From: Dehalococcoidales bacterium
Lineage (GTDB): Bacteria; Chloroflexota; Dehalococcoidia; Dehalococcoidales; RBG-16-60-22
Length of the DNA stretch: 55,499 bases
Assembly (NCBI GenBank): GCA_036787005.1
Contig: DAIQQC010000001.1
Span: 12,879-68,377, forward strand
Reading direction: 5' to 3'
The position numbers and the translations under genes were made by a program. The notes beneath the pieces are model-generated. The model was given only the letters and a program-made list of their open reading frames with translations, was not told the origin of the DNA and ran no database searches. This document shows, piece by piece, positions 7,287-54,099 of the stretch; the stretch's first letter is position 1, and each line of letters starts with the position of its first letter.

Positions 7287-7318
7287 CTATAAATCGCCAC
7301 ACGTAACGGGAGGAAAGA

Positions 7319-10002: not shown

Positions 10003-10026
10003 TAAATAATGGGAGAGAAAATATAG

Positions 10027-24268: not shown

Positions 24269-24302
24269 ATAGAGATAGCAAAAGAAAAGGAATATATACA
24301 TA

Positions 24303-24340
24303 CCGGTGGAGGGGCTAAGTACCGGCTGGCTCCTCCACCG
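24303..24340 (+). other. stem-loop between the SBP and permease genes
   Basis: CCGGTGGAGG ... CCTCCACCG is a 9-10 bp GC-rich stem with no U-tract. This is the usual position of partial terminators or stabilisers in ABC operons. Confidence 0.35.
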
Positions 24341-24548
24341 AAGGGAAAGTTTGCAGGTTCGTTCGGATTATCGGCGGGAACGGGCTTTTAATAAAATATA
24401 AGAAATTTTACGGTTAATACAAGACTTGTTTTAGCAAACCAGCTAAAGCAAATCAGGGTTATTTCAGGTTGAGGAATGTAGGTCCCACGAGGGTTGACGA
24501 TACACTGCCTTTTTGAACATGCTGCTAATGACATGCTGGAGGCTTTGA

Positions 24549-25511: not shown

Positions 25512-25522
25512 GGAGTTCTGGT

Positions 25523-26437: not shown

Positions 26438-26464
26438 GAAATCCGGATCAATAAGGAAAACGAT

Positions 26465-30589: not shown

Positions 30590-30670
30590 TAAGAACCGAC
30601 TCGTAACATAAGCGGGTATCACCAGAGTTAAAAATACGGGGATATAGTCCATTGCCAAAAGGGGGTTAGC

Positions 30671-33592: not shown

Positions 33593-34654
33593 TCATAGCT
33601 TGTATTCTTCAAATTCATACCGGCAAGGCTGTCCCCAGGCAACGTACATCACCTTATCCTCGGGGATCATAATTACCGAAGCCAGCGTCTCTCCCCGGGG
33701 CATCTGGGGGTTCATATGGGCACATATCGAGTTGGGGTAGTTATTATGGTCAGCCATGAACTCCATCATCAACTCAACGGTAAGGTCTCCATAGTGCCTT
33801 TCCATGAGTCTTTTTATCCGCTGCACCCGAATGTAGCTGTCACCTTCCATCAAACCAAAGGTGCCGTCACCCCTTTTCAGTCTTTCCGTGAGGTAATGGT
33901 TGGAGTGAACGAACATATCGGCTTCAGGCTGCAGCACGTTAAAGTCATCGGGCCTGGTCTCAATAGCGATAATGTCCCCTTCCGCGCTAGCGAAGGTATA
34001 ATTCAAGATACTACGCCCCGAGGCGCAAACGACCCCTAGGGCGTCGCCGATTCTCTTCTGCCGCATCGCCCGCAAGATGACACAGCAACAGGGCACGTTA
34101 AGGGCCTGGTCTTTAACCGGACTTAACATTACGTTCAGAGTCATTGCTACTCCCGCGGAGTTCAGCAACACCTCGCAGGCGCCGCCAAAGACAAGCGATA
34201 GCTGTTCCAGATTGTCATTGTACTTTTTCCTGACCAGATCTATCGACAAACCGGCATTGAGGTCGAAGTTCTGGCCGATGATTGTCTTACCGCCCCTTGT
34301 CACCTTACCCGTAGCGGCAAAAGACGTGCAAAGACAGGTTACACGCTGGTAATATATGCCTAACTCAAACCGGCACATCAGCATTAAAATCTCATCAAAC
34401 GGGACGCCGGCACCTTCCGCCTGTCCCTTCATCATCTCAATCAGCTCCGGGTCAAAACGCTCTACCGAGGGCAAATATTTACGGGCATTGGCCAAGATTT
34501 CCGCCTTGCTGACTTTCCGCACCATGCCGATGTTAACGATAAGCTCATTAATCGATTTGATAATATTATTCCGGCAAGCTACGCCGTACTGCTTCCCGAT
34601 TTCATAAGGAGTGCCACTGCACTCATGGACCGGTAACTTCCTGCTATCTTTCAT
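33593..34654 (-). CDS. C45-family peptidase / acyltransferase-like Ntn hydrolase (paralog)
   Basis: LCTSFAATG...GQNFD. It is collinear with 20517-21572 over its full length. ATG at 34654 is preferred over TTG at 34669. Confidence 0.75.
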   Translation of the reverse strand: MKDSRKLPVHECSGTPYEIGKQYGVACRNNIIKSINELIVNIGMVRKVSKAEILANARKYLPSVERFDPELIEMMKGQAEGAGVPFDEILMLMCRFELGIYYQRVTCLCTSFAATGKVTRGGKTIIGQNFDLNAGLSIDLVRKKYNDNLEQLSLVFGGACEVLLNSAGVAMTLNVMLSPVKDQALNVPCCCVILRAMRQKRIGDALGVVCASGRSILNYTFASAEGDIIAIETRPDDFNVLQPEADMFVHSNHYLTERLKRGDGTFGLMEGDSYIRVQRIKRLMERHYGDLTVELMMEFMADHNNYPNSICAHMNPQMPRGETLASVIMIPEDKVMYVAWGQPCRYEFEEYKL

Positions 34655-34696
34655 TTGCCTTCCCTTCAATGCCTGGCGTCTTGTTACTTGGCATCT

Positions 34697-36433
34697 TTAC
34701 ATGGCATCGTAGACAATTTTTCCGCCGGCAACAGTCATCAATGTCCGTATATCCGTTATTTTATGCGGCTCCACATTCAATATATCCTCGTCAAGAATAC
34801 AGAAATCAGCCACTTTACCGGGTTCTATAGAGCCTTTGACCTGTTCCATGTGGTCCTGCCAGGCTCCTTCTATGGTATACATCCGGATAGCCTGTTCGCG
34901 GCTAATACGCTGGCCAGAGTCAGCAGACAAGTCTCCTGGTATAGACTCCCTTAAAACGGCTGCCTGTATCCCCTGTTTCCAGTCCGGGATAGTCACAGGA
35001 GCATCAGAGCCGCCGGAAACATGTACGCCTGCCTCCATCAGTGTTTTTAAGGGCAGCAGCTTCGTGGCACGTTCTTTGCCAACGGAAAAAGCTATAGGAC
35101 CGGACATGACATTTGCCAGCACCGGCTGTACCGAAACACCGATATGATATTCGGCCATGCGTCTGGCGCTTTTCCCTGGAACGAAGTCACCATGAATGAT
35201 GTAATGGCGGAGGTCCTTTGGCTGCTCCTGCTCTGCCCTGACAAAACCATCAATACAGGCATCGATGGACCTATCGCCGGTAGCATGAACACCTATTTGA
35301 AAACCGAGTTTGTGGGCATGGGCGACAATATTCCTCAGCTCCTGGCAACGCTGCTCGTCCGTCTGCCCTGAAAAAATAAGAGCCCCGTTACCGCCACCCG
35401 TATAATCTTCATACATCCAGGCGGTTTTCATCGGCGGTATGCCGTCGGCAAAAAGCTTGATTCCGGCTATCCTCAGCCATTTATTGCCAAAACCAGTGTG
35501 TATCCCGATTTCCGGCAAACCCTTGAGCAGTTCCTCAGGATGGTAGCGGCCGTAGGGAGTAAAGAGCAGCAAGATGCTAACCCTTACCGTGAGTTTGCCC
35601 TCATTATTCAGGTCGTTATAGATGCTGATACATTCAGAATCCCATAGCCCCCCATAAACCAGAGCTCCAGCCGGGCCCAGACTCGGCTCGGTGATGCTGG
35701 TTATCCCCAGAGTATTAAGTTCACGCATGGCGGTGAGTAGCGCCTGTTTCTTTTGCTCCCTGGTCAAGAGAGGCACAACGCCGGTCACCAGATCGTCCGT
35801 GAGCATCCCCCGCACTAAACCGGTAAACTCGCCGGTGACCGGGTCTTTGACAACCTCACCACCACGGGCAAATGGGGTGTCTTTATGGATTCCTGCCAGG
35901 TTCCAGGCCCTGGTGTTAAATAGAACGATACGTTCGCCGCGAAAGGGAATAGCCCCGATGTAGACAGGGTTATCCGGAGATATCCGGTCTAAATCCCAGC
36001 GTGTGGGGTACCGGCCCGAGTTTTGCTGACACTCGTTAAGCAATACCGGGTCGAGTCCCATACCTCGTATCCACTCGCCGGGCTTGGCCGACTTTGCTTT
36101 CTCACCTATGGTATTAACAAGGTCGTCGATGGATTTTACCGCCGGGTAACTGACATCGAGCACTACCGGAGGTCTTGTACCACCAAAAAGAGAGGCATGT
36201 ATATGAGCATCGTTAATGCCCGGAAGCACGGTACTGCCTTGAAGGTCGATTTTTCGGGTCTTTTTGCCTGCCAGGGCTATAATCTCTTCATGGCTGCCAA
36301 CCGCCAGGATTATACCGTCTTTAACCGCTATGGCGCGGGCAATAGAAAAATTCTTATCTACCGTGACGACTTTTCCGTTGAAAACAATCAAATCCGCTAG
36401 CGCCGATTCTAGCGGCGACCTGTTTGACGCCAT
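34697..36433 (-). CDS. amidohydrolase-3 (YtcJ-like) metal-dependent hydrolase, cytoplasmic paralog
   Basis: DLIVFNGKVVTVD...PGINDAHIH...HATGD. ATG at 36433 follows GAGAGGTG. No signal peptide. Confidence 0.85.
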   Translation of the reverse strand: MASNRSPLESALADLIVFNGKVVTVDKNFSIARAIAVKDGIILAVGSHEEIIALAGKKTRKIDLQGSTVLPGINDAHIHASLFGGTRPPVVLDVSYPAVKSIDDLVNTIGEKAKSAKPGEWIRGMGLDPVLLNECQQNSGRYPTRWDLDRISPDNPVYIGAIPFRGERIVLFNTRAWNLAGIHKDTPFARGGEVVKDPVTGEFTGLVRGMLTDDLVTGVVPLLTREQKKQALLTAMRELNTLGITSITEPSLGPAGALVYGGLWDSECISIYNDLNNEGKLTVRVSILLLFTPYGRYHPEELLKGLPEIGIHTGFGNKWLRIAGIKLFADGIPPMKTAWMYEDYTGGGNGALIFSGQTDEQRCQELRNIVAHAHKLGFQIGVHATGDRSIDACIDGFVRAEQEQPKDLRHYIIHGDFVPGKSARRMAEYHIGVSVQPVLANVMSGPIAFSVGKERATKLLPLKTLMEAGVHVSGGSDAPVTIPDWKQGIQAAVLRESIPGDLSADSGQRISREQAIRMYTIEGAWQDHMEQVKGSIEPGKVADFCILDEDILNVEPHKITDIRTLMTVAGGKIVYDAM

Positions 36434-36508
36434 GAATATCACCTCTCAGGTTGGACCGAAAAGACCTGTTGTTTTCCAGAGATAACGCCCCATCAGATTC
36501 TAAAAATT

Positions 36509-36841: not shown

Positions 36842-38560
36842 ATGAAGATAGACATGCGCTATGCCGACACCGTTTTCTTGAATGGGAAAGTCATTACAGT
36901 AGACGGGGATTTTTCAATCTGCCAGGCGGTAGCCACCAAGGACGGTATCATCGTAGCCACGGGCAGAAATAACAACGTCAGGTCTCTGACAGGTAAAAAC
37001 ACGCGGGTTATCGACCTTAAAGGCAAGACGATGCTCCCCGGTATTAACGACTGCCACACACATGCGGCTTTATTCGGTGGTACGAGGCCGCCGCTGATGC
37101 TTGACCTCACCTATCCGACGGTAAAATCAATCAAAGACATCGTCAAGTTAGTTGCGGAAAGAGTTAAAACGACCCACCCCGGGGATTGGATAAGAGGGTT
37201 CGGCTGGGACGAAGGGTATTTAGAGGAATGCCTGCAGGACAGGACACACCACCCCACGCGATGGGATCTGGATGTCATATCCCCGGACAACCCTGTCTGC
37301 CTGGGCGACTTTTCCGTGCACTCCCTCTGGCTGAACAACAAGGCGCTGGAACTGGCGGGTATCACCACGGACACGCCAGTCCCGGTGGGCGGAGACATTG
37401 TTAAAGACCCCGAGACAGGCAAGGTCACGGGGATAATCAACGAGCTTGCCGCCCAGGGAATGGTCATGAAGGTCATACCACCGTGGACCAGGGCGCAGAA
37501 GAGATCTGCGATAGTTACCGCCATTAAAATTTTCAACGAGCTGGGCATTACCAGTATTACCGAGGGCGCGCTGGGGCCTGGAGGCGTGGGCTACCAGGGG
37601 GGACTGCTCGACTCAGAGTGCATCGGGGTCTATAACGACCTCTATGATGAAGGCAAGCTAGACATCCGCGTGAATATATTCTATCTTTTCGGCGAGTACG
37701 GAGCTTGCTCCTATAAAGATTTCCAACAGATTATCCCCGCACTGGGCATACACTCTTGCTTTGGCAACGATTGGATAAAGATCGGCGGAGTGAAGATATT
37801 CGCCGACGGCATCCCTCCGAACAAGACCGCCTGGGTAAGTGAGGAGTACGCTGGAGGAGGGCGGGGCAGCCTGGTGGTGCCGGGTAACACGGAGCAGGAA
37901 CACCGTGAAGAACTTGACAGGATGATAAAGCTGGCTCATCATCATAACTTCCAGGTAGGCGTCCACGCCATCGGTGACATGGCGATAGCCGCCACCGTCG
38001 ACAGCTTCATCGAAGCTGAAAAGAATGAACCCAAAGGTTTGAGGCACTACATTGTACATGCCGACTTCATCTCGCCCGAATACGCTGATAAGGCGGCCAA
38101 AAACAATATCGCCATCTGTGCCCAGCCCGGTATCCAGTGGACCCTTGCCGACGCTAGCTCCTATCTAGTCGGCATCGAGCGGGCAGCCCAGCAGTGGCCG
38201 TACAAGACCATTCTTGATGCCGGCGCGCGTCTCACCGGCAGCTCCGATACGCCCTGCATCGCCCCCCACTGGCTGCAGGGTATTCAGTCTGCCCTATTAA
38301 GGGAGTCTAAAGCCACCGGCAAGGTAAACAATCCTGCCCAACGCATCAGCCGGGAACAGGTTATCCGCATGTACACGATATCTGCTGCCTGGCAGGACCA
38401 CATGGAAAACCGGAAGGGCTCTATCGAACCGGGGAAGCTGGCCGACCTGTGCGTCTTGGGAGAGGATATTCTAGGCGTGGAGGCGCACAGCATAAAGGAC
38501 ATTCCTATAATGATGACGGTGGTCGGCGGGCAGGTAGTCTATGAAAGTGATGATTTTTAG
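36842..38560 (+). CDS. amidohydrolase-3 (YtcJ-like) metal-dependent hydrolase, cytoplasmic paralog
   Basis: DTVFLNGKVITVD...PGINDCHTH...HAIGD. It is collinear with 34697-36433 and 14106-15923. Confidence 0.85.
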   Translation: MKIDMRYADTVFLNGKVITVDGDFSICQAVATKDGIIVATGRNNNVRSLTGKNTRVIDLKGKTMLPGINDCHTHAALFGGTRPPLMLDLTYPTVKSIKDIVKLVAERVKTTHPGDWIRGFGWDEGYLEECLQDRTHHPTRWDLDVISPDNPVCLGDFSVHSLWLNNKALELAGITTDTPVPVGGDIVKDPETGKVTGIINELAAQGMVMKVIPPWTRAQKRSAIVTAIKIFNELGITSITEGALGPGGVGYQGGLLDSECIGVYNDLYDEGKLDIRVNIFYLFGEYGACSYKDFQQIIPALGIHSCFGNDWIKIGGVKIFADGIPPNKTAWVSEEYAGGGRGSLVVPGNTEQEHREELDRMIKLAHHHNFQVGVHAIGDMAIAATVDSFIEAEKNEPKGLRHYIVHADFISPEYADKAAKNNIAICAQPGIQWTLADASSYLVGIERAAQQWPYKTILDAGARLTGSSDTPCIAPHWLQGIQSALLRESKATGKVNNPAQRISREQVIRMYTISAAWQDHMENRKGSIEPGKLADLCVLGEDILGVEAHSIKDIPIMMTVVGGQVVYESDDF

Positions 38561-41838: not shown

Positions 41839-43426
<1,588 letters not shown>

Positions 43427-43534: not shown

Positions 43535-44395
43535 TTATGCCTTCGGCGGTAGCTCCGCGGCGCGCTTGCGGTAACCTTCCAGATAGCGGCGCGCGAAGCG
43601 ATCGCGGCCCAGAATAAGGTCGGCGGAGAGCACCGCGGGCATGACCTTGGCGGCGTCGGCAATCAGGGCGGTCCCGCCCGCCTCGATGACCATCGCCAAC
43701 CAGGCATTGTTCAGGATCTGGCGGTCGGGCATACCGAAAGAGATATTGCTGGCGCCCATCGTCATGTTCACGCCGATTTCAAGGCGTATCCGGCGCAGGG
43801 CGTCCAGGACGTCCCTGGCGGCCTTCGGTTCAGCGCCGATGGCGTAGGTCATAACGTCGATGACCAGGTCTTCCCTGGGGACTCCGGCCTTTTCACAGGC
43901 TTCGACGATTCGCTTGGTGATTTCTACCCGGCGCTCCGTGCTCTTGGGGATACCCGCCTCGTCCTGGGCCAGGCCGACCACCGCGGCGCCGTAGTGTTTG
44001 ATCAGGGGCAGGACGCGTTCCAGGCGGGCTTTCTCGCCGCTGATGGAGTTCACCAGCGGTTTGCCCTTGTAGACCTTCAGGCCGGCTTCCAGGGCAGCGG
44101 CGTTGGGGCTATCGATGCAGACAGGGACGTCGACAGTATCCTGGATGATCTTGATAGCTTCGGGGAGCAATTTAACATCATCGACGCCGGGGGCGTTGAC
44201 ATTGCAGTCGAGGATGGTAGCCCCGGCGGCAACCTGTTCGAGCGCTTCTTTCTTGATGATGGAAAGGTCGCCGGCTTTAAGCGCTTCCTGCAGCTTTTTC
44301 TTGCCGGTGGGGTTGATACGCTCGCCGATGATGACCGTCGGCCGGTCATAAGAAATGATCACTTCTTTGGTCGGGGTAGATACTTTCGTGTCCAT
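43535..44395 (-). CDS. pterin-binding methyltransferase (MtrH / methyl-H4folate:corrinoid MeTr-like; presumptive MT II)
   Basis: 286 aa. IIGERINPTGKKK..., ILDCNVN, VPVCIDS, LVNSISGE and MGASNISFGMP are the classic pterin-binding TIM-barrel blocks. AGGAGA RBS. Confidence 0.85.
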   Translation of the reverse strand: MDTKVSTPTKEVIISYDRPTVIIGERINPTGKKKLQEALKAGDLSIIKKEALEQVAAGATILDCNVNAPGVDDVKLLPEAIKIIQDTVDVPVCIDSPNAAALEAGLKVYKGKPLVNSISGEKARLERVLPLIKHYGAAVVGLAQDEAGIPKSTERRVEITKRIVEACEKAGVPREDLVIDVMTYAIGAEPKAARDVLDALRRIRLEIGVNMTMGASNISFGMPDRQILNNAWLAMVIEAGGTALIADAAKVMPAVLSADLILGRDRFARRYLEGYRKRAAELPPKA

Positions 44396-44520
44396 TTATT
44401 CTCCTGTTCCAGATACAAGAAATTCAAAGCTAAAAGCTCATGAGTATTATAGCATTTCTACGCCTGGGGATAAAGATTGAGTGACGACTTAAGATACCCA
44501 GTTTTATTCTTTGAACTGAA

Positions 44521-45855
44521 CTAATACACGCCGTACTCTCTGACGGCTTCCATCATTGCCCGCAGGTTATCGGGGTTGCCCTCGTTCATGCCGGCTGCGC
44601 CGGTCAGGATATAGCCGCCGCCGGGGGCACAGGTCTCGATGAGTTTACGGCAGTACTCCTTGACCTCTTTGGGCGACTTAGTATACAGATACGAAGACGG
44701 GACGTTGCCGGCGATGCAGGCAGAACTGCCGAGGACCTTCTTCGCACGGGCCATGTCAATGTCCTCAAAGAGCCACAAAGCGGATGACTTAGGTAGGTCC
44801 TTAATGACCTCGAGGCGGGCGCCGTACCTGCCCTCGGCGAAGGGGAAAGGCACCAGCCCCTCCTCGATCATCCCCATCAGCACGCGGCGGTAGGTAGGCC
44901 AGTAAAAGGTCTCGAACTGCTTCGGGGACATAAAGCTCTCGTCGCCTTTATGGAGGGGCATAAAAACCATCGGTGAGCCGGTAACGTCCGCCATCGCCAC
45001 GGCCGAAGCGATCGTTTGCGGGACGAGCCTCTCCATGGCTTCATGCAGCCTTTCCGGCTGGCGGTACATATCCATGACCATGCCCTGGGTGCCGCGCAGC
45101 ATATCGACGATATTATCGAACGGCGCGCCGCCCATCGCCCCCCCGCGCAGGTTCGGTATGCCGGCCGCCAGGCAGGCAAGATTGAGACCGGCGATAGCCC
45201 TCTGCCACTTAATGACCTCTTTGCCGGCCGCGATCATCGTGCGGAAAGCCCTGGAGACATCGGGATCGGCCATGGCGGCATAAAATGGCAGAGGCACGCT
45301 CATCGTGCCGGTCATCGGGGGCAGCTTGCGGAGCGGCTCCAGCGCCCCGACGACGCGCGGCAGGAATACGCGCCACCAGAAATCGGCGGGATTACCCAGG
45401 AAGGCGGGGTACTCGTCGGCCTTCATATATTCCTTCTCCACGAACTGGTAGAGGGAGGCGTTGTCCGGCAGGCCGTGGCCGGGCCACTTGTGCAGACGGT
45501 GGTCGGTCATCTCCAGGGCTTTACCGGGGAAGACCAGCGACGGGCCGGTGAAGGTGTCCATGTCAAACTCGGCGATGAACTTGAGGTAGGCCTTTTTCAG
45601 CTTCGTGAAGTCGTACATGACTTCCTTGAGGGTGTAGCCGGCATAGTGGACGGGAAAGACGCCGGAGGGCAGCATGCAGGGGACGCGGTCGGGCTCTTCC
45701 AGCTTGATGGCCTTGATAAAGCGGGTCGTCCGCTCTTTGTAAAGGCGTTCCGCTTTTTTGTTCTTGAACTTGATATCCGGAGAAAGCCAGCGCTTGAAGC
45801 GCTCCTCGCGCTTCTGCTGCCAGGTAAGCTTGTCCCAATTGGCGATGCCTTCCAT
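44521..45855 (-). CDS. URO-D-family corrinoid-dependent methyltransferase, paralog 6 (presumptive MT I)
   Basis: 444 aa with WDKLTWQQKREERFKRWLSP, KWPGHGLPD, RGTQGMVMDMYRQP, PLHKGDESFMSPKQFETFYWPT, ACIAGNVP and CAPGGGYIL. GGGAGG RBS. Confidence 0.8.
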   Translation of the reverse strand: MEGIANWDKLTWQQKREERFKRWLSPDIKFKNKKAERLYKERTTRFIKAIKLEEPDRVPCMLPSGVFPVHYAGYTLKEVMYDFTKLKKAYLKFIAEFDMDTFTGPSLVFPGKALEMTDHRLHKWPGHGLPDNASLYQFVEKEYMKADEYPAFLGNPADFWWRVFLPRVVGALEPLRKLPPMTGTMSVPLPFYAAMADPDVSRAFRTMIAAGKEVIKWQRAIAGLNLACLAAGIPNLRGGAMGGAPFDNIVDMLRGTQGMVMDMYRQPERLHEAMERLVPQTIASAVAMADVTGSPMVFMPLHKGDESFMSPKQFETFYWPTYRRVLMGMIEEGLVPFPFAEGRYGARLEVIKDLPKSSALWLFEDIDMARAKKVLGSSACIAGNVPSSYLYTKSPKEVKEYCRKLIETCAPGGGYILTGAAGMNEGNPDNLRAMMEAVREYGVY

Positions 45856-45896
45856 ACATTAGCCTCCCATATCATCGACTATTGCGGGTGATGGAG

Positions 45897-45936
45897 ATTG
45901 CCGCGTCGTCCCGATGTGATCGGGCCTCCTCGCAAT
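45897..45936. repeat. REP-like hairpin in the spacer between paralogs 5 and 6
   Basis: ATTGCCGCGTCGTCCCGATGTGATCGGGCCTCCTCGCAAT has an inner perfect stem CCCGAT/ATCGGG and outer arms ATTGC/GCAAT. Confidence 0.45.
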
Positions 45937-45948
45937 GACAGCGTATAT

Positions 45949-47289
45949 TTATTGCTTATATATGCCGTATTCTTTAGCGGCGGCCATCATGGCGCGGATA
46001 TTTTCCGGCCGGGCCATGTCGAAGGTGGAGCCGCCCGTCAGGATATAGCCGCCGCCCGGGGCGCAGGTCTCGATGAGCTGGCGGCAATATGCGGTCATTT
46101 CTTTTTCCGTGCCGGTGTAGGCGACGGAGACCGGGACATTGCCGGCGATGCAGGCTACACGGCCGACCGTTTTCTTGGCGTTGGCCATGTTCGTCTGGTC
46201 GAACATCCAGATGCAGGCCGACTTAGGCATATCGGAGATATAATCGAGCCGGCGGTTATAGGCGCCCTCGGCTACCGGCATGGGAATAAGCCCTTCCTCG
46301 ACCATGGCGAGGAGCAGCCGGCGGAAAGTAGGCCAGTAAAATACCTCGAACTGCTTATCGGACATGAAGGAATCGTCGCCTTTGTGCAGCGGCATCATGA
46401 TAACCGGGCAATCGGCGGCGTCCGCCATGGCGACCGCCCCGGAGAGCAGTCCGGGCAGGACGAACTCCATGCCCTGGTGGATCTTGTCCGGCTGGCGGTA
46501 CATGTCCATGACGATGCCGTGGGTGCCGCGGAGGTTATCAGCGAAGACGTCGAATGGGGCGACGGCCAGCCCGCCGCGGAAAACGGGAAAGCCCTTAGCT
46601 TTGGCCGCCTCGGTAGTCTCAGCGGCGGCTTTATTCCAGGCCGGCACATGCTTGCTGGCCTCGCCGATAGCCTTGAAGGTGGCCTGGAAATGGGGGTCGA
46701 GGCACATCGCCATCAGGCGCGCGGGCAGGCCCTGGTAGGACGAAAAGGGAGGCATGTCTTTAAAAGGCTCGAAGACGCCCATGGTGCGCGGCAGGAGCTT
46801 GCGCAGCTGGAAATCGAAGGGGTCTTTCATAAAGAGGTCGTACTCATCGGCCTGCATATAGACACCCTCCACGTACTGGTAGGAGTGGGCGTCGTCGGGC
46901 AGGCCGTGGCCGGGCCACTTCATCGTCCGGGCACCCAGGCACTCGTTGACCTGTGCCTGGAAGAACAGGGTGCCGTCGAACGTATCAGAGTCGTACTCGT
47001 CCACGAACCTGAGCCAGACCTTTTTCATGAGCGCGGGGTCGTACATGACCTGCTTGAGGGGGACGCCGGCGTTAAAGGCGGGGAACCAGCCGGTGGGAAT
47101 CATACAGGGGACACGGTCGGGGACCTCCATTTTAGCCGCCTTCGCCAGGCGGGTGGCGCGGGCCTTGTAGCCTTTCTCCGCCTCTTTACTGACGAACTTA
47201 ACGTCGGCGGGATTGATCCACTTATCGAGGCGGAGGTCGCGTTTCTGCTGCCAGGTCAATTTAGACCAATTTTCAGGTCTGGTAAACAC
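45949..47289 (-). CDS. URO-D-family corrinoid-dependent methyltransferase, paralog 5
   Basis: 446 aa with WSKLTWQQKRDLRLDKWINP, KWPGHGLPD, RGTHGIVMDMYRQP, PLHKGDDSFMSDKQFEVFYWPT, ACIAGNVP and CAPGGGYIL. Confidence 0.8.
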   Translation of the reverse strand: MFTRPENWSKLTWQQKRDLRLDKWINPADVKFVSKEAEKGYKARATRLAKAAKMEVPDRVPCMIPTGWFPAFNAGVPLKQVMYDPALMKKVWLRFVDEYDSDTFDGTLFFQAQVNECLGARTMKWPGHGLPDDAHSYQYVEGVYMQADEYDLFMKDPFDFQLRKLLPRTMGVFEPFKDMPPFSSYQGLPARLMAMCLDPHFQATFKAIGEASKHVPAWNKAAAETTEAAKAKGFPVFRGGLAVAPFDVFADNLRGTHGIVMDMYRQPDKIHQGMEFVLPGLLSGAVAMADAADCPVIMMPLHKGDDSFMSDKQFEVFYWPTFRRLLLAMVEEGLIPMPVAEGAYNRRLDYISDMPKSACIWMFDQTNMANAKKTVGRVACIAGNVPVSVAYTGTEKEMTAYCRQLIETCAPGGGYILTGGSTFDMARPENIRAMMAAAKEYGIYKQ

Positions 47290-47314
47290 TATTTATTCCT
47301 CCGATCATCAAGGT

Positions 47315-47393
47315 GTCATTCTGAGCACGGCGAAGAATCCGGCCCGTTCTCAAAGAAACGGATTCTTCAGTCGCGCCGCTCCTTCAGAATGAC
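47315..47393. repeat. REP-like long hairpin in the spacer between paralogs 4 and 5
   Basis: GTCATTCTGA...GAAGAATCCG // CGGATTCTTC...TCAGAATGAC forms two perfect 10-bp arm pairs. Confidence 0.55.
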
Positions 47394-47402
47394 AAAGGGA
47401 AG

Positions 47403-48809
47403 TTATTTTTTTACTTTGGTCGGTTTCTTTGGTTTTAAAGATTTTGTTTTTGGTTTAGCTTTATACGCGCCGTATTCGGCTGCAGCGTCCATCATGGCCT
47501 TGAGGTTTTCTATCTTGCCGTTATCGATGCTGGCGCCGCCGGCCAGGATAAAGCCGCCCCCGGGGGCGCAGTCGGCGATAAGCTTCTTACAATAGTCTTT
47601 CACCTGTTTAGCGGTGCCCTTGATAACGATGGAGGTTGGCACGTTGCCGGCGATGCAGCAGATGCCGCCCAGCAGCCGCTTGGCCTCTTTCATATCGGTC
47701 TGGTCGAAGTACCAGACGACGCCGCTCGGCGGGGTGTCCGTAATCTGTTTGAGCCGGTTGGTATAGCGCCCCTCGGCGAAGGGCATCGGCACCAGGCCTT
47801 CGTTGATCATCGCCAGGAAAAGGCGGCGCAGGGTGGGCCAGTAAAACTCGGCGAACTGCTTGTCGGACATGAAGGCGTCGTCGCCCTTGTGCAGGGGCAT
47901 CATGCAGATGGGGCTGGCCGATATCGGGAAGTTCTTGATATTGACCTCGATAGTCCATTGCAGATAGCGCTCCATCGCTTCGTGCAGTTTCTTCGGCTGG
48001 CGGAACAGGTCGCGCGAAATACCCTGGGTGCCGCGTAGAGCGTCGGCAAAATGGTCGAAGGGCGCCCCCGCCATCATGCCGCCACCCCACATCGAGGGAT
48101 AGCCGTGGGCCCGGATGTAGTTATTGATTTCCAGGCCAGCATCCATCCATTTTTTCTGTACGTCTACCAGACCCAGGAGCGTCTCGAAGGTCTGGCGGAT
48201 ATCCGGGTCGGTGAGGGCCATCAGCCAGAAATTGCCCATGATGGAACTGAAAGGCGGCAGTTTGCGGAAGGACTCGAAGAGGGGGGTGGTGCGGGGCATC
48301 ATTACGCGGAGGTTATAATCGGTGGGATCGAGCATGTACCGGTCGTACTCATCCGGCAGCATGTACTCGCCCTCGACGAACTGGTTCATGGTGGCGGTCT
48401 CGGGCAGGCCGAGGCCGGGGAGCTTGGTCTGCCTGGAGCGGACGACGGATGCAATCTGACCGCAGGGGATAAAGCTGGGCCCGCTGAAAATGTCCATGTC
48501 CCCGAAGGCCGTCATGTATTTCTTCCATATCGCATGGCCTTTTTTATAATCGTACATGAGCTCGTGGAAAGACGAGCCGCCCCAGTAGGCGGGGAAGTTG
48601 CCGGTGGGGAGCATCACGGGGACGCGGTCGGGCTCCTCCAGCTTGATGGCTTTCACAAAGCGGGTCACGCGCTGTTTGTAGAGCTCTTCCGCCTCCTTGC
48701 TGACGAACTTGACGTCGATAGGATTGAGCCAGCGGTTAAAGCGTTCCTCGCGTTTTTCCTGCCAGGTCATGTCCGCCCAGGCTTTTTTAGCTGCCGTTTT
48801 GACTGCCAT
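47403..48809 (-). CDS. URO-D-family corrinoid-dependent methyltransferase, paralog 4, with Lys-rich C-terminal tail
   Basis: 468 aa with the same conserved blocks (WADMTWQEKREERFNRWLNP, PLHKGDDAFMSDKQFAEFYWPT, CCIAGNVP, CAPGGGFIL). It adds the tail KAKPKTKSLKPKKPTKVKK. GGGAGG RBS 12 nt after the upstream stop. Confidence 0.8.
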   Translation of the reverse strand: MAVKTAAKKAWADMTWQEKREERFNRWLNPIDVKFVSKEAEELYKQRVTRFVKAIKLEEPDRVPVMLPTGNFPAYWGGSSFHELMYDYKKGHAIWKKYMTAFGDMDIFSGPSFIPCGQIASVVRSRQTKLPGLGLPETATMNQFVEGEYMLPDEYDRYMLDPTDYNLRVMMPRTTPLFESFRKLPPFSSIMGNFWLMALTDPDIRQTFETLLGLVDVQKKWMDAGLEINNYIRAHGYPSMWGGGMMAGAPFDHFADALRGTQGISRDLFRQPKKLHEAMERYLQWTIEVNIKNFPISASPICMMPLHKGDDAFMSDKQFAEFYWPTLRRLFLAMINEGLVPMPFAEGRYTNRLKQITDTPPSGVVWYFDQTDMKEAKRLLGGICCIAGNVPTSIVIKGTAKQVKDYCKKLIADCAPGGGFILAGGASIDNGKIENLKAMMDAAAEYGAYKAKPKTKSLKPKKPTKVKK

Positions 48810-48821
48810 TTTCGTACCTCC

Positions 48822-50147
48822 CTAATACTTGCCGAATTCCTTAGCCGCGGCCATCATGGCGCGCAGGTTGTCCGGGTTGCCGATATCCAGGTAGGCGCCG
48901 GCGGTGAGCATATAGCCGCTGCCCGGCGCGCAGGTCTCGATGAGGCGCCGGCAGCGCTCTTTTACCTCTGCAGGCGTCCCGGTGACCATCACGGAGACCG
49001 GCACGTTGCCGGCGATGCAGGTATGCCCGAGGACTTTTTTAGCTTTGGCCATGTCCATGTGCTCGAAGAACCAGATCACCGAGCTGCGGGGCATATCCTT
49101 GATAATATCCAGGCGAGGCTCGTAATCGCCTTCGGCGAAGGGCATCGGCACGAGGCCTTCGTTAACGAGGCCGATCATCAGCTCTCTTAAAGTAGGCCAG
49201 TAAAACTCCTCGAACTGCTTATTGGACATGAAACCGCCGGTGCCTTTGTGCAGGGGGATGAAGACAATCGGGCAGGCGGAGGCGTTGCCCGAAGCGATCC
49301 CCTCGCTGATGGCTACCGGCAATACCCTAGCCATCGCCTGGTGCAGCTTGTCCGGCCTCTTGAACATGTCCATCATGATGCCGCGCGTGCCCCGGAAAAA
49401 ATCGCCGATCATATCGAAAGGCGCCTGGGACATACCGCCCCAGACGCCAGGGAAACCGGCGGAAAGCGCCGCCTGGCTGACTTCTCCGACCGCCGCCGCC
49501 CATTTGCCGAGTTCCCCCGCGGCGGCGAACATGTTTTTATACGCCTTCTGTATCTCCGGGTCGGCGAACTGCGCTATGTAGCCGAGGGGTATGGCGACCA
49601 TGGGGGTCAGGGGCTTCATTTTACGGAACGCCGCCAGCGACCCCACCGAGCGGGGTAAGAAGTACCGCTGGAGGTAATCGGCCGGGTCGTTGATGAGGAT
49701 ATCGTATTCCTCGGGGGGCATATATTCGCCCTCGATATACTGGTGCGAGGTCGCGTTATCGGGCAGACCGTGGCCGGGCCACTTTTGTAGTGTGTAATCG
49801 ATCATATCCAGCACTTTAGCGGGAAAGACCAGGCTAGGAGGGAAATAGCAATCCATCTCGGGGAAATCGCGCAGGAACTTCAACCAGGCGCGTTTCAGTT
49901 CATCGTAATCGTTCATGACCTTTTTCATGCTGGAGCCGGCGTAAACGGCCGGGTAATACTGCACCGGCGTGATGACCGGCACGCGGTCGGGGTTCTCCAG
50001 CTTGATGGCTTTAATGAAGCGGGTCGTCCGCTCTTTATAAAGTCGCTCCGCTTCCCGGCTATCGAACTTAACGCCCGGAGAAAGCCATTTCTTGAAGCGC
50101 TCCTCGCGCTTTTCCTGCCAGGTCAACTTATCCCAGTTTTTATCCAT
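48822..50147 (-). CDS. URO-D-family corrinoid-dependent methyltransferase, paralog 3
   Basis: ATG at 50147 gives MDKNWDKLTWQEKREERFKKWLSP and follows GGGAG. The ORF-track start at 50243 overlaps the upstream gene. This is the only paralog with H-x-C (GHTCIAGNVP). Confidence 0.8.
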   Translation of the reverse strand: MDKNWDKLTWQEKREERFKKWLSPGVKFDSREAERLYKERTTRFIKAIKLENPDRVPVITPVQYYPAVYAGSSMKKVMNDYDELKRAWLKFLRDFPEMDCYFPPSLVFPAKVLDMIDYTLQKWPGHGLPDNATSHQYIEGEYMPPEEYDILINDPADYLQRYFLPRSVGSLAAFRKMKPLTPMVAIPLGYIAQFADPEIQKAYKNMFAAAGELGKWAAAVGEVSQAALSAGFPGVWGGMSQAPFDMIGDFFRGTRGIMMDMFKRPDKLHQAMARVLPVAISEGIASGNASACPIVFIPLHKGTGGFMSNKQFEEFYWPTLRELMIGLVNEGLVPMPFAEGDYEPRLDIIKDMPRSSVIWFFEHMDMAKAKKVLGHTCIAGNVPVSVMVTGTPAEVKERCRRLIETCAPGSGYMLTAGAYLDIGNPDNLRAMMAAAKEFGKY

Positions 50148-50175
50148 GAGATAGTCTCCCTTATGAGATTTTGAG

Positions 50176-51510
50176 CTAATAGACGCCGTATTCACGCGCG
50201 GCTTCAACGATGGCGCGGAGGTTGGCGGGGTCGCACTTATCAATGCCGGAGCCCAGCGACAGGATATAGCCGCCGCCCGGGGCGCAGCCCTCGATGAGCT
50301 TGCGGCAATATTCTTTGATCATCGGGGGGGTCTGGGTATAGAGCATGGCCGCGGTGACGTTGCCGGCGATGCAGGCGGAGTCGCCGAGGATCTTCTTGGC
50401 CTTGAACATATCCGTCTTTTCCATCGTCCAGACGACCGACGAGCGCGGCAGGTCGCTGATAATGTTAAGGCGGGCGTCGTTATAAGAGCCGTCGATGACC
50501 ATCATGGGGACGAAGCCCTCGTTGACACAGCCGAGGAGGAGCTTGCGGAACGTAGGCCAGTAGAATTTCTCGAACTGCTTGATGGACATGAAGGAATCGT
50601 CGCCCTTGTGCATGGGGACAAAGATAATGGGACTGCGGGACATAGAGGCCATATTGACCGTCGATTCCTTGGAGCGCTCGGTGATGACCTCCAGCGCTTC
50701 GAGGAGCTTTTCCGGCTGGCGGTACATGTCCATAACGGAGCCGTGAGTCCCGCGGAGCATGTCGGCGACGGTATCGAAGGGGGCGAGCATCGAGCCGCCC
50801 ATGAGCGGTGGATAGCCCGACTCCAGGGTGAGCCGGGCGCACTCCACGACCACTTTCTGTAGCTTGGCCTGCTCCTCGGCGGCTGCCGTGACAGCTTTGA
50901 ACATCTTCCGGAAGGCGGGGTCGAGGGCCATCATCATCAGGCGCTGGGGGAGGCCCTGGTAGGAGGAGAGGGAAGGCATATCGGCTAAAGGGGCAAAGGC
51001 GCCCCAGGTGCGGGGGGTAAACTTCCGCAGGCCGAAATCGAACTGGTCTTTCATAAAGAGGTCGTACTCGTCGGCCTGCATGTACTCTTTTTCCACGAAG
51101 TTCTGGAGGGTGGCAGTGTCCGGCAGGCCGTGGCCGGGCCACTTGGTTACCTTGTAATCAAGTATTTCATAGGCGCGGGCGGAGAAAAACATCGGGGCGT
51201 CGTTGGAGTCCTGGTCGTAGTCCTGGATCCACTTGAGCCAGGCGGGCTTGATCTTGGAGTAGTCGTAGAGCACGTCGTGGAGGGTGTAGCCGGCGTTATA
51301 GGCGACGATAGAGCCGCCGGGGATGTGCAGGGGAACGCGGTCGGGGACCTCCATCTTGATGGCCTTGATCATGCGGGTGGCGCGCTCCTTGTATTTCCTG
51401 GCCGCCGCCGGGCTGCTGAACTTAACGTCTTTAGGTGACAGCCATTTCTTGAAGCGCTCCTCGCGTTTTTCCTGCCAGGACATTTCCGACCATTCTTTTT
51501 CCGTTTTCAT
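50176..51510 (-). CDS. URO-D-family corrinoid-dependent methyltransferase, paralog 2
   Basis: 444 aa with WSEMSWQEKREERFKKWLSP, KWPGHGLPD, RGTHGSVMDMYRQP, PMHKGDDSFMSIKQFEKFYWPT, ACIAGNVT and CAPGGGYIL. Confidence 0.8.
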   Translation of the reverse strand: MKTEKEWSEMSWQEKREERFKKWLSPKDVKFSSPAAARKYKERATRMIKAIKMEVPDRVPLHIPGGSIVAYNAGYTLHDVLYDYSKIKPAWLKWIQDYDQDSNDAPMFFSARAYEILDYKVTKWPGHGLPDTATLQNFVEKEYMQADEYDLFMKDQFDFGLRKFTPRTWGAFAPLADMPSLSSYQGLPQRLMMMALDPAFRKMFKAVTAAAEEQAKLQKVVVECARLTLESGYPPLMGGSMLAPFDTVADMLRGTHGSVMDMYRQPEKLLEALEVITERSKESTVNMASMSRSPIIFVPMHKGDDSFMSIKQFEKFYWPTFRKLLLGCVNEGFVPMMVIDGSYNDARLNIISDLPRSSVVWTMEKTDMFKAKKILGDSACIAGNVTAAMLYTQTPPMIKEYCRKLIEGCAPGGGYILSLGSGIDKCDPANLRAIVEAAREYGVY

Positions 51511-51533
51511 AAGTACCTCTATTCTTAATAATC

Positions 51534-51600
51534 AATAACCAAGATACAAATTCCAAACGTTTGGCATTGTTTGGTTATTGGTTCTTGTATCTTGGTTATT
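51534..51600. repeat. AT-rich nested inverted-repeat element in the spacer between paralogs 1 and 2
   Basis: AATAACCAAGATACAA (51534-51549) is the exact reverse complement of TTGTATCTTGGTTATT (51585-51600). Inside lie the 12-bp palindrome CCAAACGTTTGG (51553-51564) and TTGGTTATTG (51571-51580), which could pair alternatively with 51532-51541. Confidence 0.6.
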
Positions 51601-51602
51601 AT

Positions 51603-52934
51603 TTAGTATTTACCGTATTCTTTAGCGGCTTCCATCATGGCGCGCATGTTTTCCGGGTTGCCTTCGTCGACGTTAGCGCCGCCGGCGAGGACATAGCCGC
51701 CGCCCTGGCCGCAGACCTCGATGAGCTTGCGGCAGTGCTCTTTGACCTGCTGGGGCGTACCCGTCATTATCAATGAGCTGGGCACGTTACCCATGATGCA
51801 GCACCGGTTGCCGATCTTCTTCTTGGCCTCGAAGATATCCGTCTGGTCGAAGTACCAGGCCACCGTCCCTTTGGGGAAGTCCCCGATAATGTCGAGCCGC
51901 TTGTTATAGGAGCCCTCGGCGAAGAGCACCGGTACGATGCCCTCGTTGACGAAGGCCATAACCACCTTTTTAAAAGTAGGCCAGTAGAAAGTCTCGTATT
52001 GTTTCACGGACATAAAGGAGTCCGCGCCTTTGTGGAGCGGCATCATGACGATGGGAGCCGCTGCCATGGCCACCGAGGATAGCGCGTTGTTGATGGCGAT
52101 TGGAGCTATCCGCTCCATGGCGGCGTGGACCTTTTCCGGCTGCCGGAAAATATCCGTCATGATTCCCTGGGTGCCGCGCAGCGTATCCCCGAGGGTATCG
52201 AACGGGGCCTTGGCGAGGGCGCTCATCACGCCGGGGAACCCCATCGCCAGGGCTTCCGCGGAGATCTCGCCCACTGCAGCGATCCATTTCAGGCTTTCCA
52301 TACCGGCTTTCGCCATGGCGTTAAAGCCGGCCTGCACTTCCGGGTTAGCGAAGGGGAGAAAATTGCCGGTAACGATTTCTTCAAATGACGTCCACGACGG
52401 CAGCTGGGTAAAGCCTTTGAGAGCGCCGAAGACCCGCGGCAGGTAGGTGCGCAGCCAGAAATCCGAGGGGTCGCGGATAAGGGCATCGTATTCATCGGCC
52501 TTCATGTATTCGCCCTCTACCGCCTGGTAGGAAAGAGTTGACCGGGTAAGACCGTGCCCCGGCCACTTGTAAAGCTTATAGTCCACCGCATCCAGCGACG
52601 GGCCGGGCGGCACCAGGACGGGGGGAACAAAGGTATCGGCATCGAACTCATGGAGCACTTTGCGCCAGGCGCGCTTCATCTCGTCGAAATCGTACATGAC
52701 GGTGGCGAGGTTGGTGCCGGCGTAATAGGCCGCGTACAGTCCCATCGACGGCAGGATGCAGGGCACCCTGTCCGGTTTCTGGAGGGTGAAGGCTTTGCTG
52801 AACCTGGTGACTCTCTCTTTATAGAGTTTTTCAGCCTGCGGGGAGGCAAAGGTCACGCCCGGCGGAGAGAGCCACCGCCGGAAGCGCTGTTCCCGCTTTT
52901 CATCCGGGGTTAACTCCGTCCACTTTTTCTCCAT
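51603..52934 (-). CDS. URO-D-family corrinoid-dependent methyltransferase, paralog 1
   Basis: ATG at 52934 lies 1 nt after the corrinoid-protein stop and gives MEKKWTELTPDEKREQRFRRWLSP. Also KWPGHGL, RGTQGIMTDIFRQP, PLHKGADSFMSVKQYETFYWPT, CCIMGNVP and CGQGGGYVL. An alternative GTG lies at 52946. Confidence 0.8.
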   Translation of the reverse strand: MEKKWTELTPDEKREQRFRRWLSPPGVTFASPQAEKLYKERVTRFSKAFTLQKPDRVPCILPSMGLYAAYYAGTNLATVMYDFDEMKRAWRKVLHEFDADTFVPPVLVPPGPSLDAVDYKLYKWPGHGLTRSTLSYQAVEGEYMKADEYDALIRDPSDFWLRTYLPRVFGALKGFTQLPSWTSFEEIVTGNFLPFANPEVQAGFNAMAKAGMESLKWIAAVGEISAEALAMGFPGVMSALAKAPFDTLGDTLRGTQGIMTDIFRQPEKVHAAMERIAPIAINNALSSVAMAAAPIVMMPLHKGADSFMSVKQYETFYWPTFKKVVMAFVNEGIVPVLFAEGSYNKRLDIIGDFPKGTVAWYFDQTDIFEAKKKIGNRCCIMGNVPSSLIMTGTPQQVKEHCRKLIEVCGQGGGYVLAGGANVDEGNPENMRAMMEAAKEYGKY

Positions 52935-52935
52935 G

Positions 52936-53571
52936 CTACTTGGCACCGATCCATTGCTTGGAGAGCGTCACAGCCGCCATGGCGTCCTTGCCGTAGGCGT
53001 CCGCCTTGGCATACTTCCTCACCTCGTCGTCCATCTGGCCGCCGCCGATCATGATCTTGAGGTTCTTTCTCAGGCCGGCTTTTTCCAGGGCTTCGACGGT
53101 CTCTTTCATGGCATCGAAGGCGGGGGTAAGGAATCCGCTCAGACCGAGCACGGGCGGATTGATGTCGTGGACGGCTTTAACGAACTTTTCCACGGGCACG
53201 TCGACGCCGAGGTTGGTGACCTCGAAGCCGTTGACGTCCAGCATGAACTCGACGATATTCAGGCCGATATCGTGAATGTCGCCGGCCACGGTGCCGATGA
53301 CGACCTTGCCGAGTTTCTTGGTTTTGGCGCTGGATTCTTTAAGGTGGGGGGTAACCAGGGCCATGACCTCTTTGAGAAGCTCACCGGAAAATACGAGTTC
53401 CGGCAGGAAATACTCGCCGCCGGCGAAACGCTTGCCGACGATCGCCATGGCCGCGGTGTTATCGGCCAGGATTTTGTTCGGGTCTTCCCCGGCTGCCAGT
53501 CTCTTCTTGGTCAGCGCGAGTACCTCTTCCTCTTTGAGGTCCGCCATCTTGTTTACGAAGTCTTCAGACAT
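52936..53571 (-). CDS. corrinoid (B12-binding) protein, MtaC-type, first gene of the methyltransferase operon
   Basis: 211 aa with GDIHDIG (DxHxxG). It shares long identical peptide runs with 2436-3071, for example VIGTVAGDIHDIGLNIVEFMLDVNG and VLGLSGFLTPAFDAMKETV. AAGGAGG RBS. Confidence 0.9.
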   Translation of the reverse strand: MSEDFVNKMADLKEEEVLALTKKRLAAGEDPNKILADNTAAMAIVGKRFAGGEYFLPELVFSGELLKEVMALVTPHLKESSAKTKKLGKVVIGTVAGDIHDIGLNIVEFMLDVNGFEVTNLGVDVPVEKFVKAVHDINPPVLGLSGFLTPAFDAMKETVEALEKAGLRKNLKIMIGGGQMDDEVRKYAKADAYGKDAMAAVTLSKQWIGAK

Positions 53572-53657
53572 ACCTTACTCCTCCTTAATTTTTTATGGTA
53601 CTTCTGAGAATACAGCTGGGTTAGCTTTTGAGGCTGTCAGCCCCACCTGTCGTAGGC

Positions 53658-53686
53658 AGTATATCAATGCTCCAAAAAAAAGTCAA
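53658..53686 (-). promoter_or_regulatory. TTGACT, 17 nt, TATACT promoter of the corrinoid-methyltransferase operon
   Basis: On the minus strand TTGACT is 53681-53686 and TATACT is 53658-53663, with a 17-nt spacer. This leaves a leader of about 80 nt before the AAGGAGG RBS. Confidence 0.55.
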
Positions 53687-53785
53687 CTATTTTATAACGA
53701 ATAAACATTAGAGGAAAAGGGCATCCAGATACTCCCTTTTTTCTTTACAACCATGGTCTTTTAGGATAAAATTATAGGGCTCCGA

Positions 53786-53860
53786 GCGGGAGTAATTCAG
53801 TGGTAGAATGTCTGCTTCCCAAGCAGAAAGTCGCGGGTTCGAATCCCGTCTCCCGCTCCA
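53786..53860 (+). tRNA. tRNA-Gly(CCC), CCA encoded
   Basis: GCGGGAG TA ATTC AGTGGTA GAAT G TCTGC TTCCCAA GCAGA AAGTC GCGGG TTCGAAT CCCGT CTCCCGC T CCA forms a clean cloverleaf with a U73 discriminator. Confidence 0.9.
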
Positions 53861-53918
53861 GATTCGTGCTTTGTAACTTGTTTTTCCATAATCATTCCAT
53901 GAGGGTGAATTTGATGGA

Positions 53919-54099
53919 ACCTCACCCCTTGCCCCTCTCCAGCCGGTTCTTACAAGTTAGACGATAGTTTTTTCTGGCTGGAGAGGGGAGTGAAGAAGAG
54001 AGGGGCTTCGCCCCCTCTCAAATGCTCTCCCCCTCTCAAACAAGGAATGATACTAATACTAATACACAGCTGTTTGAGAGGGGGATAAGGGGGTGAGTT
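53919..54099. repeat. REP/MITE-like palindromic intergenic repeat, copy 2 (three hairpins within terminal inverted repeats)
   Basis: Hairpin arms are CCCCTCTCCAGCC/GGCTGGAGAGGGG (13 bp), AGAGGGGC..GCCCCCTCT and CCCCCTCTCAAACA/TGTTTGAGAGGGGG (14 bp). The outer arms are AACCTCACCCCTT ... AAGGGGGTGAGTT. It is homologous to 32863-32998. Confidence 0.6.

Follow-up and report, generated by a model that had tools for sequence, protein, structure and literature searches.

The closest described counterparts of the locus analysed here include three corrinoid-dependent systems in which a substrate-activating methyltransferase (MT I), a corrinoid protein (CP) and a second methyltransferase (MT II) work together. 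The vanillate/dicamba O-demethylase MtvABC of Moorella thermoacetica (MtvB, WP_011391929.1) consists of a long URO-D-type MT I, a CP and a pterin-binding tetrahydrofolate methyltransferase. In the MtoABCD system of Methermicoccus shengliensis and Archaeoglobus fulgidus, two MT I proteins that are 57% similar, MtoB1 and MtoB2, share one CP and one MT II, and different affinities have been proposed for them (PMC8630106). CdmBCA, the chloromethane dehalogenase/methyltransferase of Acetobacterium dehalogenans, follows the same MT I-CP-MT II logic, and CdmB has been grouped with the O-demethylases MtvB, MtoB, OdmB and VdmB in the UroD superfamily (PMC13222342). It is well known that a genome may carry many MT I paralogs acting on different methoxyaromatics; A. 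dehalogenans alone has 26 methyltransferase systems (PMC13222342), and methoxy-type MT I genes have been reported in bacterial metagenome-assembled genomes (MAGs) from peat spanning 19 phyla (PMC10805028). Here we describe an operon at positions 43535-53686, on the minus strand, of a 55,499-nucleotide stretch of contig DAIQQC010000001.1 from an uncultured Dehalococcoidales bacterium (hereafter the window), in which six consecutive URO-D-family paralogs, P1 to P6, are combined with one CP and one MT II.

Our analysis favours, with a probability that we put at roughly 0.7, the reading that this operon encodes a corrinoid-dependent methyl-transfer (demethylase) system of the MtvABC/MtoABC/CdmBCA type, expressed as a whole from one promoter; it would probably serve as a multi-substrate battery of aryl-methyl-ether demethylases feeding methyl-tetrahydrofolate. 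By sequence comparison, P1-P6 belong to the long MtvB/MtoB/CdmB class of MT I, of which their size is also typical. Against reference sequences taken from Supplementary Data 3 of PMC13222342, the closest characterised enzyme to all six is M. thermoacetica MtvB, with 29-37% identity over about 410 aa and 172-233 bits, the top value of 37% being reached by P6; identity to MtoB is 24-33% and to CdmB 23-28%. Scores against these three enzymes range from 117 to 233 bits over about 400-445 aa, and those against OdmB, VdmB, CmuA, MecE and UroD do not exceed 57 bits. A profile of the window family searched against solved structures matched CdmB (PDB 9rui) with an E value of 3e-58, as compared with about 2e-3 for HemE and MtaA; this match, together with MtvB as nearest characterised relative, bears out the MT I identity proposed for the six in a first-pass annotation made from the DNA alone. 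In a neighbour-joining tree the long-type MT I enzymes form a clade apart from UroD, MecE and one short A. dehalogenans paralog (92% bootstrap), within which P5 and P2 group together (98%). Mean identity is 49% inside the window family and 28% between it and the characterised long-type enzymes. The Bathyarchaeia-specific lignin MT I MtgB was set aside as an unrelated protein of about 300 aa (PMC10989822).

Individual residues point in the same direction. The string KAPFDTLGDTLRG is identical between P6 and MtvB in the alignment, and the LH(K/R)G motif with its 2-residue indel is common to the paralogs and MtvB only; APFDxxxDxLRG, FYWP and the C-terminal EYGVY are further elements that MtvB shares with the paralogs. 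His302 and Asp251 (P1 numbering) occur in all six, as in the O-demethylases MtvB and MtoB, where CdmB has Trp and Ser. Position 341 is Glu in five paralogs, Asp in P5, Glu in MtvB and MtoB, and Gln in CdmB. This O-demethylase-like state at 302, 251 and 341 is suggestive, given the few characterised sequences compared.

The six paralogs are 44-56% identical to one another and share 100 invariant alignment columns, in which polar and charged residues predominate (D247, D251, R254, H302, K303, R347). All of the motif blocks quoted for them in the first-pass annotation are present, with variants beyond those it listed in P3, P4, P5 and P6: KWPGHGL reads KLPGLGL in P3, PLHKG reads PMHKG in P5, CIAGNV reads CIMGNV in P6, and CxPGGGY reads CAPGGGF, CAPGSGY and CGQGGGY in P3, P4 and P6, respectively. 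The first 33-38 or so residues (W..KREERFKRWL.P..VKF) form an N-terminal extension that the alignment finds in no characterised MT I. In the AlphaFold2 model of P1 (pLDDT 92.8) this extension contains a helix at residues 12-24, and the model has a UroD-type barrel, the fold type reported for CdmB (PMC13222342). The extra length of the paralogs over MtaA had been attributed mainly to this segment, which in fact accounts for about one third only. Strong relatives of about 412-420 aa (P0133, P0140, P0143 and similar; E 1e-132 to 1e-70) match from query position 33-40 and lack the extension, which therefore marks a subfamily inside a broader MtvB-like group. At its C-terminus (47403-47470), P3 carries a Lys-rich tail of about 20 residues, KAKPKTKSLKPKKPTKVKK, otherwise seen only in its nearest relatives, at loci L001 and L010; the remaining members of the P3 orthogroup end in EYGxY(KK).

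The partner genes complete a three-component system. The best solved-structure match of the CP is the O-demethylase CP of Desulfitobacterium hafniense (4jgi, E 2e-42); it is 38% identical to CdmC, carries the DxHxxG motif ascribed to it (Table 1) and scores 151.5 bits against TIGR02370 (methyltransferase cognate corrinoid protein), under that model's 215.3-bit cutoff. MT II matches Pfam Pterin_bind (9.9e-31) and NCBIfam PRK07535 (293.7 bits, cutoff 259), has MeTr (2yci) and the D. hafniense O-demethylase MT II (4o0q) as its solved-structure matches, and is 38% identical to acetogen MtaA and 36% to MtvA, in a 35-38% range that includes CdmA. The MtrH-type MtoA reaches E 5e-7 only. This closeness to MtvA and acetogen MtaA and distance from MtoA make the protein a folate-type MT II, so that of its initial description as MtrH/MeTr-like the MeTr part stands and the MtrH part does not. 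The matches of CP to 4jgi, of MT II to 2yci and 4o0q and of the paralogs to CdmB thus uphold the MT I/CP/MT II logic that had been suggested for the operon. The idea of a single CP holds for the operon and not for the window as a whole, where an orphan paralog of 211 aa, 72% identical to the operon CP, lies at 2436-3071 (+). This second CP sits in the region 1340-3848 (+), between a radical S-adenosylmethionine (SAM) protein (1340-2395) and a class I SAM methyltransferase (3090-3848); as a matter of speculation, the latter recalls MetH-type reductive-methylation repair.

Relatives of the paralogs are numerous and their distribution is informative. Matches among 90% clusters number more than 4,350 proteins, of which the closest (P0001, a homolog of P1) is 94% identical; 764 clusters at the 50% level do so with E <= 1e-30, and at least 563 matching stretches occur in GTDB species representatives. 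Where a source is named, it is nearly always a MAG of Dehalococcoidales or of other Chloroflexota, recovered from soil, peat (SPRUCE), Rifle aquifer sediment or a comparable site, Microflora Danica being another of the sampling campaigns represented. In Acidobacteriota, Desulfatiglandales, Spirochaetes and Bathyarchaeia the family occurs in single copies, and outside Chloroflexota the gene is usually solitary. The arrangement CP-(MT I)n-MT II, with n = 3-7 when family members are counted per retrieved locus, recurs in about 20 other Chloroflexota/Dehalococcoidales MAG loci, including L001, L004, L006-L008, L010, L016, L021, L038, L039, L062 and L069.

Each window paralog constitutes an orthogroup of its own, 65-96% identical to its positional counterpart in other MAGs. 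The order P6-P5-P4-P3-P2-P1 is kept across MAGs with occasional losses or extra copies, the P6 orthogroup standing first in 17 arrays. Nineteen alignment positions are constant within orthogroups and different between them, and some of these flank invariant motifs (242, 243 and 248 by APFD; 343, 345, 350 and 354 by G342, Y344 and R347). The long-term retention of six diverged, collinear paralogs is the pattern expected if each has its own substrate, and the conservation of separate orthogroups in a conserved order across species would argue for six maintained specificities, lending comparative support to the multi-substrate idea put forward in the first-pass annotation. A longer array, with at least 10 MT I pieces as open reading frames (ORFs), occupies a 1,996,400-bp contig (MFD03726.bin.1.62) retrieved as both L002 and L054; several of its MT I are split into fragments of 138-323 aa, which may be pseudogenes or long-read frameshift errors.

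The expectation that the window holds no RACE/RamA-type activator was confirmed: a Pfam scan of nearly all non-overlapping ORFs of at least 90 aa in its 55.5 kb found no RACo/RamA activase, and the best tblastn match of the window to an A. dehalogenans activase had an E value of 0.27. At three other loci, genes near family members do encode RACo, with its Fer2, linker, middle and ASKHA domains. In L069 (1-10600) the array reads CP-B-B-RACo-B-B-B-MT II (B, MT I), a complete four-component cluster with RACo at 3574-5535. RACo is found beside family members in L065 (7246-8595) and beside a family member in the Bathyarchaeia locus L063 (7304-9304). A 692-aa protein of the representative library, P0139, fuses a CP (B12-binding_2 plus B12-binding) to a family MT I whose part starts at the N-terminal extension; given the spacing of 1 nt between CP and the first MT I in these operons, a frameshift artefact is another possible origin of the fusion. 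The RACo neighbours and the fusion indicate that this MT I family is functionally tied to corrinoid proteins and RACo activases.

The operon itself is compact. Its CP, six paralogs and pterin-binding methyltransferase, all predicted earlier, are intact, closely packed minus-strand ORFs with matching Pfam domains, arranged in the order CP-P6-P5-P4-P3-P2-P1-MT II with gaps of 1-125 nt (Table 1). Pfam URO-D matches the six paralogs over profile positions of about 140-346 only, the C-terminal half. A Shine-Dalgarno sequence precedes all eight genes but P6. The true start of P4 is the ATG of MDKNW with its AAGGGAG ribosome-binding site; the longer TTG ORF, which extends to 50243, overlaps P5. The predicted TTGACT-17-TATACT promoter was found where expected, at 53686-53658, with a TG extension. 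Across 14 related loci it is kept as TTGACTTTT-N8-GCATTGnTATACT, with both hexamers and the GCATTG spacer element invariant amid divergent flanks, which is good comparative evidence for a functional promoter. The ribosome-binding site is the sole well-conserved part of the 5' leader among related loci, and no riboswitch or other Rfam family was detected in the leader at gathering thresholds, the only Rfam matches being the two flanking tRNAs.

Table 1. Coordinates of the methyltransferase operon and its boundaries, in positions of the window.
Feature	Position	Strand	Remarks
tRNA-Gly(CCC), upstream boundary of locus	53786..53860	+	equivalent position in L001, L004, L010, L038, L062
sigma-70-type promoter TTGACT-17-(TG)TATACT	53658..53686	-	consensus scan 10/12, TG extension, sequence read directly
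5' leader with AAGGAGG ribosome-binding site	53572..53657	-	about 85 nt
Corrinoid protein (CP)	52936..53571	-	211 aa; DIHDIG at residue 98; Pfam B12-binding_2 + B12-binding
MT I paralog P6	51603..52934	-	443 aa; first after CP; ATG 1 nt past CP stop codon
MT I paralog P5	50176..51510	-	444 aa; Pfam URO-D
MT I paralog P4	48822..50147	-	441 aa; ATG at 50147; Pfam URO-D
MT I paralog P3	47403..48809	-	468 aa; Lys-rich C-terminal tail; Pfam URO-D
MT I paralog P2	45949..47289	-	446 aa; GTG start; Pfam URO-D
MT I paralog P1	44521..45855	-	444 aa; Pfam URO-D; AlphaFold2 model of UroD-type TIM barrel
MT II, methylcorrinoid:tetrahydrofolate methyltransferase, MeTr/MtvA type (predicted)	43535..44395	-	286 aa; Pfam Pterin_bind
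tRNA-Met, downstream boundary	43352..43426	-	after MT II also in L001, L004, L038, L062

The two tRNA genes, of which tRNA-Met has its own promoter (TTGACA-17-TATACT at 43471-43443), bracket the locus in at least four other genomes as well, and this shared bracketing identifies the operon as an old chromosomal feature of the lineage and not a recent island. The GC content of the operon region (44000-54000) is 56-59%, against 43-53% in the remaining 44 kb of the window. In the close relative L001 the corresponding values are 56-59% for the operon and about 54-56% for its flanks, and in L062 about 49% and 44-46%, so that the operon lies a little above its surroundings in all three alike. We had considered a genomic island on account of the higher GC, an adjacent serine recombinase and the tRNAs; for the operon itself this was rejected, since four other genomes have the same tRNA flanks and the recombinase is located on the far side of tRNA-Met. 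In the region 41839-43426, the ORF of this large recombinase (Resolvase, Recombinase and Zn_ribbon_recom domains; CcrB-like) overlaps the 3' end of tRNA-Met, which lies on the other strand, and has a stretch of 43-48% GC and an ABATE/CGNR regulator beside it. The region looks like an element integrated at tRNA-Met; it is not at the corresponding position in L001, and a search of the window for an att-like repeat of the tRNA-Met 3' end gave none.

The analysis establishes which domains the proteins have, where they belong in the family, how the operon is built, and that promoter, orthogroups and gene order are conserved; the methyl-transfer chemistry, its direction, the substrate class, the distinct specificities and an unlinked activase are inferred. 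In the proposed scheme, each of P1-P6 would be a substrate-specific MT I that binds its own methyl donor, most probably one of a series of differently substituted aryl methyl ethers from lignin or humic material, and presents the methyl group to Co(I) of the single CP, yielding CH3-Co(III)-CP and the demethylated product. The single MeTr/MtvA-type MT II would move the methyl group to tetrahydrofolate (H4F), restoring Co(I)-CP, and the resulting CH3-H4F would enter C1 metabolism. Should CP be oxidised accidentally to Co(II), an ATP-dependent activase of the RACo/RamA type, its gene lying in another part of the genome, would reduce it again.

Several observations weigh against this scheme. Identity to characterised enzymes is only 23-37%, the split of the window family from the characterised long-type MT I enzymes in the neighbour-joining tree is weakly supported (37-38%), the N-terminal extension of about 35 residues is absent from every characterised MT I, and the function of the subfamily is a prediction from sequence. 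Substrate class can differ completely among close relatives of O-demethylases, as CdmB shows (PMC13222342). Unlike the mto cluster, the operon has no activase, aromatic-compound transporter or regulator linked to it. As to the fate of CH3-H4F, cultured Dehalococcoidia are without metF (PMC7005905).

It is rather unlikely that the architecture and chemistry are as proposed and some or all of the six MT I act on other donors; candidates would be methyl halides, as for CdmB, methylated amines or sulfur compounds, and O-methyl compounds of other kinds. Among solved structures the best match is after all a chloromethane enzyme, substrate class shifts inside the clade and several uncharacterised clades have been described (PMC13222342), the window family is a separate subfamily with a mean of 28% identity to characterised members, and the host order Dehalococcoidales is known for organohalide metabolism. 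The residues speak for aryl ethers instead: positions 302, 251 and 341 are in the MtvB/MtoB state (with Asp at 341 in P5) and not that of CdmB, MtvB is both the closest characterised sequence and the sole one with the shared indel, and the invariant residues are largely polar or charged, as opposed to the central cavity of CdmB, which has been described as mainly aromatic and hydrophobic. Nor do the paralogs resemble a CdmB-type haloalkane enzyme by the measures of the homolog set in Supplementary Data 2, at 23-28% identity where at least 40% is required and with PLHKGxxxF in place of PVWYNSF.

A main flow other than methyl catabolism into tetrahydrofolate appears improbable. Such a flow could be biosynthetic, from CH3-H4F through MT II and CP to the URO-D paralogs and their acceptors, or could use methyl-CP as a direct donor for core-MetE, the type of methionine synthase usual in Dehalococcoidia. 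Neither the paralogs, which score at most 65 bits against MtaA/MtbA models with cutoffs of 244-600 and lack the thiol-activating HxC zinc motif (F-A-E-G being aligned there), nor their nearest relatives, which are MT I enzymes, fit this direction; six acceptor-specific methylases fed from folate would be without precedent, and the Pfam scan of the window ORFs found no core-MetE gene. What keeps the idea alive is that corrinoid methyl transfers are reversible, that MtaA-type URO-D enzymes run from CP to acceptor, and that Dehalococcoides core-MetE uses methylcobalamin, with a corrinoid protein proposed as physiological donor, and that metF is missing from cultured Dehalococcoidia (PMC7005905). 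That the six are genuine HemE, or MtaA/MtbA-type methylcobamide:thiol methyltransferases, as the automatic label 'uroporphyrinogen-III decarboxylase' would have it, is scarcely credible. The Pfam URO-D matches and the JGI names of homologs do suggest it, and so do the top Foldseek matches, UROD and MtaA, obtained in a PDB library ending April 2026 that has no CdmB entries. HemE is ruled out by TIGR01464 (at most 28 bits, cutoff 303), by the lack of RQAGR and by a GHxFNLGHG region that reads GGGYILTGxxG, so that the clustering with HemE and retention of its substrate residues named earlier as a possible refutation were not observed. MtaA/MtbA identity is likewise ruled out by the low scores already given and by the lack of an H-x-C zinc motif at the MtaA position in any paralog, LHICGN of Methanosarcina mazei MtaA aligning to their LFAEGS. 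His302 and Cys380 were at first suspected to be what is left of the MtaA zinc site, an idea dropped when the profile alignment placed the MtaA H-x-C at F-A-E-G. The URO-D match confined to the C-terminal half, the far poorer E values of the HemE and MtaA structures and the operon shared with CP and pterin methyltransferase genes all speak against this last alternative.

A more far-reaching reading may also be considered, which we regard as rather unlikely. If it were true, the large, uncharacterised MT I subfamily marked by the extension would have diversified onto substrate classes new to corrinoid methyltransferases, with at least some orthogroups not acting on simple methoxyaromatics; the conserved 4-7-gene array would be the core strategy, for energy or for carbon, of those widespread and uncultured Dehalococcoidales of soil, peat and aquifers that do not respire organohalides; methyl-CP might feed core-MetE directly; and the N-terminal helix would provide a new kind of element by which the shared CP is docked or gated.

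The remainder of the window contains genes of other kinds. At 4987-11139 (+) lie metal and cofactor uptake genes, namely a ZIP zinc transporter, a Fur-family regulator, an FmdE-like protein with a DksA-type zinc finger, and a FecCD/ABC/periplasmic-binding-protein transporter of BtuCDF type that could import cobalamin. The region 14106-38560 is overall a hydrolytic/heterotrophic gene neighbourhood, with three Amidohydro_3 paralogs (14106-15998, 34697-36442, 36842-38560), a phosphotriesterase-family protein (18117-19196), two AAT/C45-type acyltransferase-like proteins (20517-21572, 33593-34669), an Opp-type ABC transporter (22655-28440), and an aldehyde:ferredoxin oxidoreductase with a flavodoxin/4Fe-4S partner (28739-31594).

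Soils, peat, aquifers and sediments harbour abundant uncultured Dehalococcoidales, whose livelihood is poorly known. A conserved operon of up to six or seven differentiated MtvB-like demethylases points to methyl harvesting as a core trait, with lignin- or humus-derived methoxy compounds as the probable methyl source, and would link these organisms to anaerobic methoxy-group turnover in competition with methoxydotrophic methanogens and acetogens. For mapping what determines specificity in a class whose sole structure is that of CdmB, the six orthogroups form a natural series, and in this compact operon one CP and one MT II could be combined with six MT I in established spectrophotometric assays.

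Compared with described systems, the operon is familiar in its parts and distinctive in their arrangement. MtvABC has one MT I gene where the window has six, MtvB lacks the N-terminal extension, identity is too low for transfer of substrate, and the host is an acetogen in place of an uncultured Dehalococcoidales bacterium. The mto pair provides the precedent for several MT I sharing one CP and one MT II, with two MT I instead of six; its MT II, MtoA, is MtrH-type and directed to tetrahydromethanopterin, unlike the MeTr/MtvA-type protein of the window, and its cluster carries the activase MtoD, MFS transporters and a regulator. CdmBCA shares with the window the long-type UroD barrel with extensions and the lack of an activase gene in the cluster, its own activase being unlinked from cdmBCA (PMC13222342). 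It differs in having a single MT I, in lacking the N-terminal extension, and in having Trp/Tyr, Ser and Gln in CdmB where the window paralogs and the O-demethylases have His/Lys, Asp and Glu (Asp at 341 in P5). The short-type enzymes OdmB and VdmB, and the 26 methyltransferase systems of A. dehalogenans and those of D. hafniense, are of the same overall system type. OdmB and VdmB, which are reported to contain zinc (PMC13222342), are proteins of about 320 aa from a different URO-D clade with negligible similarity to the window paralogs, and the MT I paralogs of A. dehalogenans and D. hafniense are spread over many separate systems, in contrast to the collinear six with their one CP and one MT II. 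Literature on Dehalococcoidia together with O-demethylase, MtvB or MtoB was searched, and no paper on arrays of this kind came up. Because the mto pair already shares one CP and MT II and a 3-7-fold array is common in the lineage, the novelty is smaller than the first-pass annotation implied. What is new is an uncharacterised MT I subfamily recognisable by its N-terminal extension, the collinear arrangement of six MT I genes with a single CP, a single MT II and one conserved promoter, and the standing of this arrangement as a conserved trait of uncultured Dehalococcoidales.

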